This document shows, piece by piece, positions 6,764-6,960 of a DNA stretch of 11,432 bases. Location: contig JAHIVO010000028.1 of the NCBI GenBank assembly GCA_018816445.1, positions 1-11,432 on the forward strand, in the 5' to 3' direction. The position numbers and the translations under genes were made by a program. The notes below the pieces were generated by a model. It did no database searches, had not been told where the DNA came from, and saw only the letters and a program-made list of their open reading frames with translations. Numbering within the stretch: the stretch's first letter is position 1; each line of letters opens with the position of its first letter. The DNA is from Patescibacteria group bacterium. GTDB taxonomy: Bacteria; Patescibacteriota; Patescibacteriia; UBA10025; JAHIVO01.

Positions 6764-6837
6764 TGGAGGCCACGGGCGGAATTGAACCGCCGATAGAGGT
6801 TTTGCAGACCCCTGCCTTACCACTTGGCTACGTGGCC
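6764..6837 (-). tRNA. tRNA-Cys(GCA), CCA encoded
   Basis: Acceptor GGCCACG/CGTGGCC, D-arm GCC-AAGTGGTAA-GGC, anticodon stem GGGGT/ACCTC with loop CTGCAAA, T-arm GGCGG-TTCAATT-CCGCC, discriminator T plus CCA. Confidence 0.9.
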
Positions 6838-6870
6838 TAATATTGTTATATTGTTTAAAAATTGTTAAGG
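6838..6870 (-). promoter_or_regulatory. AT-rich promoter-like motif cttaacaattt(t/a)taaa..., repeated at 6649-6672; candidate tRNA promoter (-35-like TTAACA)
   Basis: attgttatWtttWaaattgttaag occurs twice, each 5' of a tRNA or pseudo-tRNA on the minus strand. Hexamer assignment is uncertain. Confidence 0.3.
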
Positions 6871-6960
6871 TTTTGTCTCCCTGCGGGAGATGTCCCGAGG
6901 GGACACAGACCCCTGCCTGGATCCTGCCCCGCTGAATAGCGGGGACTTGGCTACGTGGCC
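6869..6960 (-). pseudogene. Degenerate copy of the tRNA-Cys 5' half (positions ~1-43) interrupted by two GC-rich hairpin insertions, one in the D-loop and one in the anticodon loop
   Basis: cttggctacgtggcc (6946-6960) equals the tRNA-Cys 5' end (6823-6837). cagacccctgcct (6906-6918) and ggttttg (6869-6875) also match tRNA-Cys. The insertions are ~27 nt (ggatcctgccccgctgaatagcggggac) and 30 nt (tctccctgcgggagatgtcccgaggggaca). Confidence 0.65.

Follow-up and report, generated by a model that had tools for sequence, protein, structure and literature searches.

How does a small bacterial genome come to carry, immediately upstream of an intact tRNA-Cys gene, a truncated copy of the same gene whose loops are occupied by hairpins? 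The question is raised by a stretch of 11,432 nucleotides (nt) from a Patescibacteria group bacterium (contig JAHIVO010000028.1; the whole stretch is called the window here), in which a partial tRNA-Cys copy (nt 1-41 of the gene, minus the replaced D-loop bases) lies at 6868-6960 on the minus strand, 30 nt upstream of the intact gene. We propose that this copy, hereafter pseudo-Cys, is a displaced 5' part of a tRNA-Cys gene and the trace of a small selfish element that targets tRNA genes within this lineage of Patescibacteria (CPR), the invasion having left an intact tRNA beside the remnant; we give this reading a probability of roughly 0.7. The hairpin modules would be DNA-level parts of the element, probably a recognition or junction site for an enzyme. 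The parts of the locus, in the order in which they would be transcribed, are these:

7005-7033, minus strand: predicted promoter-like site TTGTAA-17-TATTAT with TG, called by consensus scan alone; it would drive a pseudo-Cys / tRNA-Cys / tRNA-Gly transcript
6945-6960, minus strand: pseudo-Cys block 1, GGCCACGTAGCCAAGT, gene nt 1-16 (acceptor 5' strand, D-stem 5' strand and start of the D-loop), 16/16 identical
6919-6944, minus strand: 26-nt D-loop insert, CCCCGCTATTCAGCGGGG followed by CAGGATCC, replacing the four D-loop bases nt 17-20
6927-6944, minus strand: D-loop hairpin CCCCGC-TATTCA-GCGGGG, to which the 8-nt tail CAGGATCC is added to complete the insert
6906-6918, minus strand: pseudo-Cys block 2, AGGCAGGGGTCTG, gene nt 21-33 (D-stem 3' strand, anticodon stem 5' strand and loop through the anticodon G), 13/13 identical
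6876-6905, minus strand: 30-nt double hairpin, TGTCCCCTCGGGACA followed by TCTCCCGCAGGGAGA (TGTCCC-CTC-GGGACA, then TCTCCC-GCA-GGGAGA, 15 nt each)
6868-6875, minus strand: pseudo-Cys block 3, CAAAACCT, gene nt 34-41 (remaining anticodon loop and start of the anticodon stem 3' strand)
6838-6867, minus strand: AT-rich spacer of 30 nt between pseudo-Cys and tRNA-Cys
6764-6837, minus strand: intact tRNA-Cys(GCA), called by ARAGORN and matched by the Rfam tRNA model at 66.8 bits
6652-6757, minus strand: extra block of about 100 nt downstream of tRNA-Cys, seen by alignment, with approximate boundaries; missing in relatives with a plain tRNA-Cys

The bases that pseudo-Cys retains are all equal to those of the real gene (37/37), and a gapped local alignment of the two scores 57.0, against 23.5 +/- 4.1 and a maximum of 42.2 for 2000 shuffles. 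An earlier description made from the letters of the window (the sequence-only reading) had reported a tRNA-Cys 5' half in the correct order, with its D-loop replaced and a 30-nt block in the anticodon loop; coordinates and bases agree with it, and the likeness to tRNA-Cys is better than chance. The double hairpin is placed exactly between anticodon bases G34 and C35 (standard numbering). All three hairpins have perfect stems of at least 6 base pairs, and the region folds with z = -3.4 relative to shuffles. Neither the T-arm nor the acceptor 3' strand of pseudo-Cys was found by alignment to the real gene, the copy stopping at nt 41. As a functional tRNA (RF00005), 6868-6960 received no ARAGORN call and no Rfam match at the gathering threshold or at E <= 1, and over the tRNA region of the window (5200-7100) Rfam returned only three tRNAs at either setting. 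Because the pseudo-Cys sequence is identical in two independent assemblies (ENA ERZ27247128 and the NCBI metagenome-assembled genome [MAG] GCA_018813575.1), it is not an assembly artefact.

The intact tRNA-Cys is 73/74 identical to the gene of a Patescibacteria MAG, the closest among the matches listed in a pattern scan of genome contigs. A contig scan for D-loop-expanded tRNA-Cys (GTAGCCAAG-N{5,35}-AGGCAGGGGTCTG) matched ordinary tRNA-Cys genes of many phyla, and no long-gap form was present among the 80 of at least 120 matches listed. The public gene call on the identical ENA contig includes an open reading frame (ORF) of 77 amino acids over pseudo-Cys and tRNA-Cys (6749-6982, minus strand; L001 4451-4684), which has no Pfam match and is almost certainly spurious.

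Related loci carry the tRNA-Cys site in several states. Five loci (L123-L127) were obtained via homologues of the methyltransferase of the same operon, and eighty metagenome loci via the conserved 167-amino-acid neighbour at window 7088-7591, which has no Pfam or NCBIfam match. The set surveyed for fragments comprised 86 related loci (477 kb, 192 tRNAs); the methyltransferase and the GIY-YIG protein considered below are annotated as Patescibacteria in public records. A plain tRNA-Cys with the same synteny and no pseudo-half is found in L124, L125, L126, L127, L130, L132 and L088, and ORF-less pseudo-Cys relics like that of the window are found in L131, L134, L129, L133, L164 and L128. The D-loop hairpin CCCCGCTATTCAGCGGGG is identical and in the same place in L131, and homologous hairpins with compensatory changes occupy this place in L134, L129 and L164, L129 having two pseudo-halves in series; the inserts of L133 and L128 differ and lie at the anticodon position.

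In L149, L174, L193 and L031, a tRNA-Cys remnant is followed by a GIY-YIG ORF and then by the live tRNA-Cys, at a place where the window has only 30 nt. The order in L149 is nt 1-34, TCTCCC-TTC-GGGAGA, TGTCCC-ATA-GGGACA, CAAAAC, ORF and tRNA; both stems, and the site they occupy, are those of the window. Furthermore, L193 and L174 carry a double hairpin at the Cys 34/35 site in 3' remnants downstream of the live gene, and in L116 a GIY-YIG ORF runs into tRNA-Cys behind an upstream flank without a remnant. The pseudo-Cys of the window is best read as an ORF-less relic of such a GIY-YIG/tRNA element. Accordingly, the idea that a pseudogene was colonised by hairpins after its formation gives way to a recurrent architecture of pseudo-tRNA, module, optional GIY-YIG ORF and intact tRNA, of which pseudo-Cys is one part. 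The L031 case (JAIWBS010000111.1, labelled Pirellulales; pseudo-Cys, hairpin cluster, GIY-YIG and tRNA-Cys at 3240-3721) has a tRNA-Cys that shares its D-arm and anticodon-stem core with the window gene, and represents either a binning error or an element outside Patescibacteria.

A simpler history would be a tandem duplication of tRNA-Cys with its flank, the upstream copy decaying neutrally and the hairpins being unrelated palindromes, similar to repetitive extragenic palindromic (REP) sequences, that landed there by chance. It would account for the 10-nt AT-rich direct repeat TTAACAATTT at 6859-6868 and 6661-6670, which brackets the live tRNA-Cys, and for the absence of a detectable pseudo-Cys 3' remnant; GC-rich hairpins are, moreover, common in the tRNA spacers of the window in general, and within 300 nt of a tRNA their density in the related loci is only about 2.2 times that found elsewhere. 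However, the same hairpins stand at the same tRNA positions in distant relatives (L131; L149, L174 and L193), relatives have a GIY-YIG ORF where the window has 30 nt, and the neighbouring tRNA-Gly is demonstrably nested rather than tandem, as described below. Neutral decay should also have altered some of the 37 retained bases, and across the 477 kb the double and D-loop hairpins tend, as a trend, to occur only beside tRNA remnants. We therefore consider the duplication improbable. The extra block at 6652-6757 holds a second, diverged copy of a spacer hairpin (6707-6738, compared with 6622-6647), and a stretch resembling the block also follows tRNA-Cys in L129.

The placement of tRNA fragments in general follows one rule. 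BLAST identified 37 fragments outside the called tRNAs of the 86 loci, and 35/37 lie on the same strand as the cognate gene, 5' pieces upstream and 3' pieces downstream, which is the pattern expected if an intact gene were placed inside, or beside the broken end of, a resident gene. Chained gapped alignment of every tRNA to its flanks was noisy, neighbouring tRNAs cross-matching, and the strong cases alone were used.

The tRNA-Leu gene of the window retains the ORF. Its features are as follows:

5641-5723, minus strand: pseudo-tRNA-Leu
5706-5723, minus strand: pseudo-Leu nt 1-18, directly after the stop codon of the SpoU/TrmL-like gene
5652-5705, minus strand: two-hairpin module of 54 nt in the pseudo-Leu D-loop
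5641-5651, minus strand: diverged pseudo-Leu nt 19-29
5382-5636, minus strand: GIY-YIG (UPF0213-type) ORF of 84 amino acids, Pfam PF01541, E = 7.7e-15
5297-5381, minus strand: intact tRNA-Leu(UAA), called by ARAGORN and Rfam

The TGA stop of the 84-amino-acid ORF adjoins nt 1 of tRNA-Leu. The nearest solved relatives of the protein are the UPF0213 proteins 1ywl and 1zg2, searches of NCBIfam and PHROGs gave no match, and of its 29 homologue clusters all that have a taxon name come from Patescibacteria/Parcubacteria or an unclassified bacterium. The site is empty in L124 and L127, in which the tRNA directly follows the SpoU/TrmL-like stop, and filled by pseudo-Leu and ORF in the window, L125 and L126. 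A homologous module stands after nt 18 in pseudo-copies of tRNA-Leu taa, caa, tag and gag (L125, L208, L209 and L211). In the module at 5652-5705, as in the alignment of these four loci, the apex of hairpin 1 (ACC-ACTAAAG-GGT) is complementary to that of hairpin 2 (ACC-CTTTAGT-GGT), so that a kissing contact or an alternative pairing of 11-13 base pairs is possible; the second module loop CTTAAGT of L125 and L209 resembles the tRNA-Leu anticodon loop CTTAAAA. The SpoU/TrmL-like tRNA methyltransferase gene itself (5724-6188, minus strand) lies within the tRNA operon and has counterparts at 5001-5540 in L124 and 5001-5543 in L127. TrmL enzymes methylate the wobble base of the tRNA-Leu(UAA) class, and the enzyme and its probable substrate would therefore be co-transcribed.

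Coupling of these ORFs to tRNA genes recurs in other loci. A profile made from the window ORF gave 15 ORF matches in the fetched loci, 12 of them distinct, and 8/12 of the distinct ORFs end at most 37 nt upstream of, or overlap, a same-strand tRNA. The four that are uncoupled (L165, L145, L187 and the first ORF of L210) stand at least 89 nt from any tRNA called downstream: those of L165, L145 and L187 are visibly degenerate and 89-172 nt from the next same-strand tRNA, and the first L210 ORF is followed by another gene. In five elements the reading frame enters the tRNA by 10-21 nt and the tRNA provides the stop codon, the overlaps being:

L193, 4869-4889: ORF-tRNA overlap
L149, 7320-7337: ORF-tRNA overlap
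L031, 3647-3656: ORF-tRNA overlap
L116, 411-420: ORF-tRNA overlap
L210, 2304-2318: ORF-tRNA overlap

RNase P cleavage at tRNA nt 1 would strip the stop codon from the mRNA of these five, and its loss may keep expression of the nuclease very low. As a safeguard against selection bias, four homologues of the window ORF (L208-L211) were picked from the protein database irrespective of context, and 4/4 show the series of pseudo-tRNA, hairpin module, ORF and intact tRNA (Leu-caa, Leu-tag, Leu-gag and Ser-gct). The Leu module moves with the ORF over four different Leu isoacceptor genes, always after pseudo-nt 18. In L209 the pseudo-parts fit a Leu(taa)-type gene and not the Leu(tag) gene beside them, so the pseudo-tRNA travels at least in part with the ORF.

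A partial copy on the same strand accompanies each of the three tRNAs of the window; these copies align with scores of 57.0, 62.8 and 48.2, the highest shuffle scores being 42.2, 37.4 and 41.4. The third case, tRNA-Gly, is a gene nested within a gene:

6505-6543, minus strand: 5' half of a resident 'A-type' tRNA-Gly(GCC), nt 1-39, cut at the 3' edge of the anticodon loop
6331-6504, minus strand: cassette of 174 nt in the resident tRNA-Gly
6481-6504, minus strand: left arm of the cassette, 24 nt, starting with CCTGCCCGCC
6405-6480, minus strand: complete 'B-type' tRNA-Gly(GCC) in the cassette, called by ARAGORN and Rfam
6331-6404, minus strand: right arm of the cassette, 74 nt, ending with GGCAGGCGGG
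6314-6330 plus 6252-6272 (span 6252-6330), minus strand: 3' half of the resident A-type tRNA-Gly
6273-6313, minus strand: 41-nt hairpin insert in the T-loop of this 3' half

The acceptor strand reads GCGAGAG in the 5' half and GCGGCAG in the live tRNA-Gly of the window, and the half was therefore not copied from its living neighbour. At this position L125 and L124 have an intact A-type gene and L127 a B-type gene; the B-type gene of the window is 73/77 identical to that of L127 and 67/77 to the A-type gene of L125. Once joined, 6505-6543, 6314-6330 and 6252-6272 form a 77-nt tRNA-Gly(GCC) that is accepted by ARAGORN and is 76/77 identical to the intact L125 gene, so the cassette split the resident gene cleanly, with no base lost or duplicated. 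The same cassette ends flank a replacement tRNA-Lys within the split resident tRNA-Lys of L125, the intact form being present in L124. The A-type halves are nearly undecayed: either the insertion into tRNA-Gly is recent or, as the less likely alternative, the halves are still in use.

This last alternative touches the suggestion, also made in the sequence-only reading, that the inserts are intron-like. Tiny introns or other excised intervening sequences would imply that hairpin-bearing or split copies are still matured into functional tRNAs. The tRNA-Gly insertions are indeed exact to the nucleotide, the split gene keeps its 76/77 identity with a live orthologue, pairing of the cassette arms CCTGCC and GGCAGG could juxtapose the two halves, and Patescibacteria are known to have introns in tRNA genes (PMC13011429). 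Yet pseudo-Cys is without a 3' half, many remnants are no more than stubs of nt 1-13 or 1-18 or, in L132, a tandem array of nt 1-19, and an intact tRNA with the same anticodon always adjoins. Reading the sequence around the double hairpin, we found no helix between exon and intron of the bulge-helix-bulge type, in which a helix of 4 base pairs separates two 3-nt bulges, the insert pairing within itself only. Searches of 5200-7100 at E <= 1 gave no match to RF00028 or any other intron model; with sizes of 26, 30, 41 and 54 nt and an intact paralogue adjoining, the inserts are not group I introns, being far too small beside the several hundred nt of these ribozymes with their P3-P9 core, without an Rfam match and lodged in redundant copies beside an intact tRNA. 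We hold maturation of these copies to be very improbable, and the intron-like label is abandoned for inserts that occur only in truncated or split redundant copies.

The way in which the hairpins vary is informative about their nature. The five double hairpins at the Cys 34/35 site (window, L149, L174 and two in L193), which align unambiguously, show two-sided changes in 8/12 pairs and no one-sided change, with 96.7% of cells paired (shuffles give 76%, and slid partners no more than 50%); the Leu module shows two-sided changes in 8/17 pairs and again no one-sided change. (A stricter regular expression was used for the Cys 34/35 inserts, the looser version returning mostly noise.) A scan for two adjacent 6+3+6 hairpins (T-N5-N3-N5'-A, twice) gave 8 distinct instances in the related loci. 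All eight start with T and end with A, and 8/8 sit in loops of tRNA remnants, four in the Cys anticodon loop, one in a T-loop and three in the Gly D-loop of the L132 array; among their 96 stem pairs there is no G-T pair, and allowing G-T adds two or three unrelated-looking matches. The loop of the second hairpin is usually GNA and that of the first usually its complement, and the double hairpin therefore looks alike on both strands. Among DNA mini-hairpins, C-GNA-G is a particularly stable one. Strict Watson-Crick pairing and two-fold symmetry together point to a constraint at the level of DNA rather than RNA. The double hairpins of the window and L149 match at 26/30 positions when one is inverted and at 23/30 when aligned directly; the module being too symmetric, we make no claim of an inversion.

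These properties bear on a further possibility, that the pseudo-half serves the tRNA operon as a functional RNA leader (a decoy, a folding or processing element, or an mRNA-stabilising 5' structure) whose RNA structure is under selection. The pseudo-half lies between the promoter-like site and the tRNA (a comparable TTGATT-17-TACTAT precedes the plain tRNA-Cys of relatives), its fold is stable, its stems covary, its acceptor strand pairs with the 3' strand of the real tRNA in the predicted fold of the whole precursor, and in ORF-bearing elements the modules stand 11-60 nt upstream of the start codon. A leader of this kind nonetheless appears quite improbable, since it is missing from many close relatives with the same operon, varies in copy number and composition (none, one or two pseudo-halves), and would have to explain the same modules in 3' remnants downstream of tRNAs (L193, L174 and L132). 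Moreover, 0 G-U in 96 stem pairs and 0 one-sided changes are atypical of RNA helices and expected of DNA palindromes.

Longer forms are built on the same plan as the mini-hairpins. Similar arms enclose AT-rich filler in L131 and L134 and whole tRNAs in L164 (TCCCGCACTTTCT ... AGAAAGTGAGGGA), L174, the tRNA-Pro of L127 and the Gly cassette of the window, which suggests that the mini-hairpins are cassette ends without cargo. Perfect inverted repeats bracket the live tRNA-Cys of L174 (CTCCACCACTC / GAGTGGTGGAG, 4690-4795) and the live tRNA-Pro of L127 (ATAGTTAGTAATACATCT / AGATGTATTAATACTAACTAT, 2490-2612); once paired, these repeats would give a long stem around the tRNA at the RNA level or a cruciform at the DNA level. 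Three identical tandem units of 106 nt precede the live tRNA-Gly of L132 (4820-5216), each with a double hairpin between nt 1-12 and nt 13-19 of tRNA-Gly, followed by a spacer, and a second remnant array with double hairpins occupies 1-300 of the same locus; both arrays look like segmental amplification.

As in miniature inverted-repeat transposable elements (MITEs), terminal inverted repeats are present, each unit being a perfect palindrome and the longer forms having like arms (L131, L134, L164 and the Gly cassette). Target-site duplications are absent: removal of the insert restores the tRNA exactly, with no duplicated bases. The MITE-like character ascribed to the hairpins in the sequence-only reading can thus be kept insofar as each is a separate palindromic unit and relatives carry such units at matching tRNA positions, and dropped as regards target-site duplication. 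Copies per locus number at least five in L132 and two each in L174 and L193; no further copy of the three pseudo-Cys hairpins, at up to 3 mismatches, was found in the 11.4-kb window, and no transposase was identified. The likeness drawn with 1-205 and 6226-6358 consequently fails as sequence likeness, that with 1-205 being one of style, and survives for 6226-6358 as the same class of object, the 3' half of the split tRNA-Gly with its T-loop hairpin. Related copies of the inserts do exist elsewhere, the D-loop hairpin in L131, L134, L129 and L164 and the double-hairpin form in L149, L174 and L193, and loop insertions recur in other tRNA genes, namely the 41-nt hairpin in the tRNA-Gly T-loop and the 54-nt module in the tRNA-Leu D-loop. 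Given this recurrence and the placement of 8/8 double hairpins in loops, the proposal of a hairpin-element family that prefers tRNA loop positions holds. The preference for loops (D-loop, anticodon loop and T-loop) is a bias and not a rule, the nt 11/12 site in the D-stem of tRNA-Cys being recurrent; the left flanks of inserts recur as CTG^ and GTT^.

The data establish the architecture, the empty and filled alleles, the link of ORF to tRNA, the precision of insertion and the covariation of the stems, whereas who cuts, how copying occurs and what the palindromes do is our inference. The full element would comprise, from 5' to 3', the 5' part of the resident tRNA (which becomes the pseudo-half), a palindromic module in a loop, a brief further stretch of the tRNA, a GIY-YIG (UPF0213-type) ORF of 80-105 amino acids whose stop codon adjoins the tRNA that follows or falls within its first 21 nt, and an intact tRNA of the same anticodon. 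The Leu copy of the window would be complete, the Cys copy would have lost the ORF (30 nt left), and the Gly copy would be an ORF-less cassette with a whole replacement gene. A resident tRNA gene would be broken, either by the nuclease or by a host enzyme that acts on the palindromes; repair would copy the element-bearing allele, the conserved tRNA sequence itself serving as homology; and the resident piece would be displaced, with an intact gene restored alongside. Repeated rounds would yield nested and tandem remnants, and the ORF would decay afterwards. As a side-effect, the palindromes would interrupt the homology between remnant and live gene that would otherwise delete the element.

Several points weigh against this selfish-element reading. 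The ORF is a bare GIY-YIG catalytic domain, without a recognisable DNA-binding domain, in a family (UPF0213) without known activity. The intact tRNA keeps the remnant's sequence around the insertion sites, and a simple picture in which the target is destroyed and the element immune therefore leaves the survival of the live copy unaccounted for. In each lineage the pseudo-blocks agree with the live tRNA beside them, although the D-loop hairpin seems to be of ancient, common origin; this combination would call for repeated re-invasion or concerted evolution. The Cys copy of the window could also be a plain tandem duplication followed by an internal deletion, consistent with the missing 3' remnant and the TTAACAATTT repeat, and the count of module copies in this genome refers to about 11 kb.

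A bolder version, which we offer tentatively and consider unlikely, would make the 15+15-nt double hairpins autonomous mobile palindromes that read the folded (cloverleaf or cruciform) DNA of tRNA genes and insert at loops, with the UPF0213 GIY-YIG protein as their structure-specific nuclease; jointly, they would kill the resident tRNA and deliver a replacement on which the host depends ('replace-and-addict'). If true, this would give the widespread UPF0213/YhbQ family its first function and represent a new mode of transposition.

Returning to the element as a displacer of tRNA genes, the best experimental precedent, by analogy, is SegB of phages T4/T6, a free-standing GIY-YIG homing endonuclease in a tRNA gene cluster that cleaves within tRNA gene sequences, is inherited with neighbouring tRNAs and causes tRNA+ORF units to be duplicated segmentally through recombination, the 5' end of the tRNA and the 3' end of the ORF sharing microhomology (PMC2330249; PMC13096335). 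A GIY-YIG ORF lies among tRNA genes in both systems; here, the window ORF (5382-5636) adjoins tRNA-Leu, and presence/absence polymorphism at one site in related genomes is seen for Leu and Cys. However, SegB is longer and its site-specific cleavage has been demonstrated, whereas the window encodes an 84-amino-acid bare UPF0213-type domain without known activity, and the genome is that of a cellular Patescibacteria rather than of a phage. The accounts of SegB in PMC2330249 and PMC13096335 include neither pseudo-tRNA remnants with hairpins nor palindromic modules.

The best architectural precedents, again by analogy, come from fungal mitochondria. As summarised in PMC3787672, an endonuclease ORF moves with a replacement portion of its host gene, the displaced native portion staying as a pseudogene, and the double-hairpin elements of Allomyces mitochondrial DNA are short, GC-rich, made of two hairpins and mobile in an AT-rich genome. 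The fungal cases concern protein-coding mitochondrial genes, of which the C-terminal part is replaced, whereas here it is tRNA genes that have mostly their 5' part, or the whole gene, replaced; the likeness is one of architecture. Beaudet 2013 and Paquin 2000 reportedly treat these gene hybrids and double-hairpin elements, and in Allomyces the double-hairpin elements are said to be physically linked to an endonuclease element.

Integrase-type integration of genomic islands, phages and plasmids likewise targets a tRNA gene, restores it with element sequence and leaves a partial tRNA copy as a scar (PMC9897764). In contrast to the classical scar, in which the 3' part is duplicated, kilobases separate gene and scar, and a tyrosine integrase is present (PMC9897764), the remnants described here are 5' parts upstream, at 25-340 nt, and carry palindromic inserts. 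No integrase was seen between remnants and tRNAs in the window, where the remnants are upstream 5' parts or nested halves.

IS200/IS605-type transposons, their ORF-less palindromic derivatives and REP/RAYT systems are small elements defined by hairpins, and their insertion makes no target-site duplication. The modules resemble them in their hairpins, precise insertion and Watson-Crick-only palindromes, and the CTG^/GTT^ flanks recall insertion 3' of a short target word. They differ in that REP families are generally conserved in sequence within a genome, whereas the stems here vary freely between copies, and in their association with GIY-YIG; no TnpA or RAYT gene was seen, no search having been aimed at them. 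Finally, group I introns interrupt the tRNA anticodon loop in the same phylum, but these are ribozymes matched by the Rfam model, occur in the sole gene copy and have been shown to splice (PMC13011429; bioRxiv 10.1101/2025.07.03.662931), whereas here palindromes of 26-55 nt or tRNA-bearing cassettes stand in redundant, truncated copies with no Rfam match; the two are unrelated.

A literature search found no description of this architecture, and a recurrent system of tRNA-gene invasion in Patescibacteria is apparently undescribed. If the proposal is true, the tiny genomes of Patescibacteria harbour active selfish elements aimed at tRNA genes, which would explain the tRNA fragments that confuse the annotation of these genomes and provide a bacterial counterpart to the gene-hybrid endonuclease and double-hairpin elements of fungal mitochondria. 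It also gives the uncharacterised small UPF0213 GIY-YIG proteins a concrete genomic context, the ORF being fused to the tRNA 5' end in 8/12 distinct cases, and makes the Watson-Crick-only, two-fold symmetric double hairpins at tRNA loops a candidate recognition structure of a new nuclease-DNA system.

Elsewhere in the window, positions 1-205, at the contig end and downstream of an ATP-grasp/MATCAP gene, consist of GC-rich nested hairpins (CTCCGC...GCGGAG type); no significant tRNA fragment was found there, the only match being a 13-nt T-arm-like one at 208-220. A conserved cluster of three genes at 237-5191 (minus strand) encodes an ATP-grasp and MATCAP-like peptidase fusion, a membrane protein with PKD and 7TM inactive-transglutaminase-associated parts, and a RimK-like ATP-grasp; at least the first two genes are also present in L123 and L127. 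Two adjacent paralogous genes of the OMP-decarboxylase/HUMPS family lie at 7937-9537 (plus strand), with stretches of 70-79% identical DNA exactly 932 nt apart.

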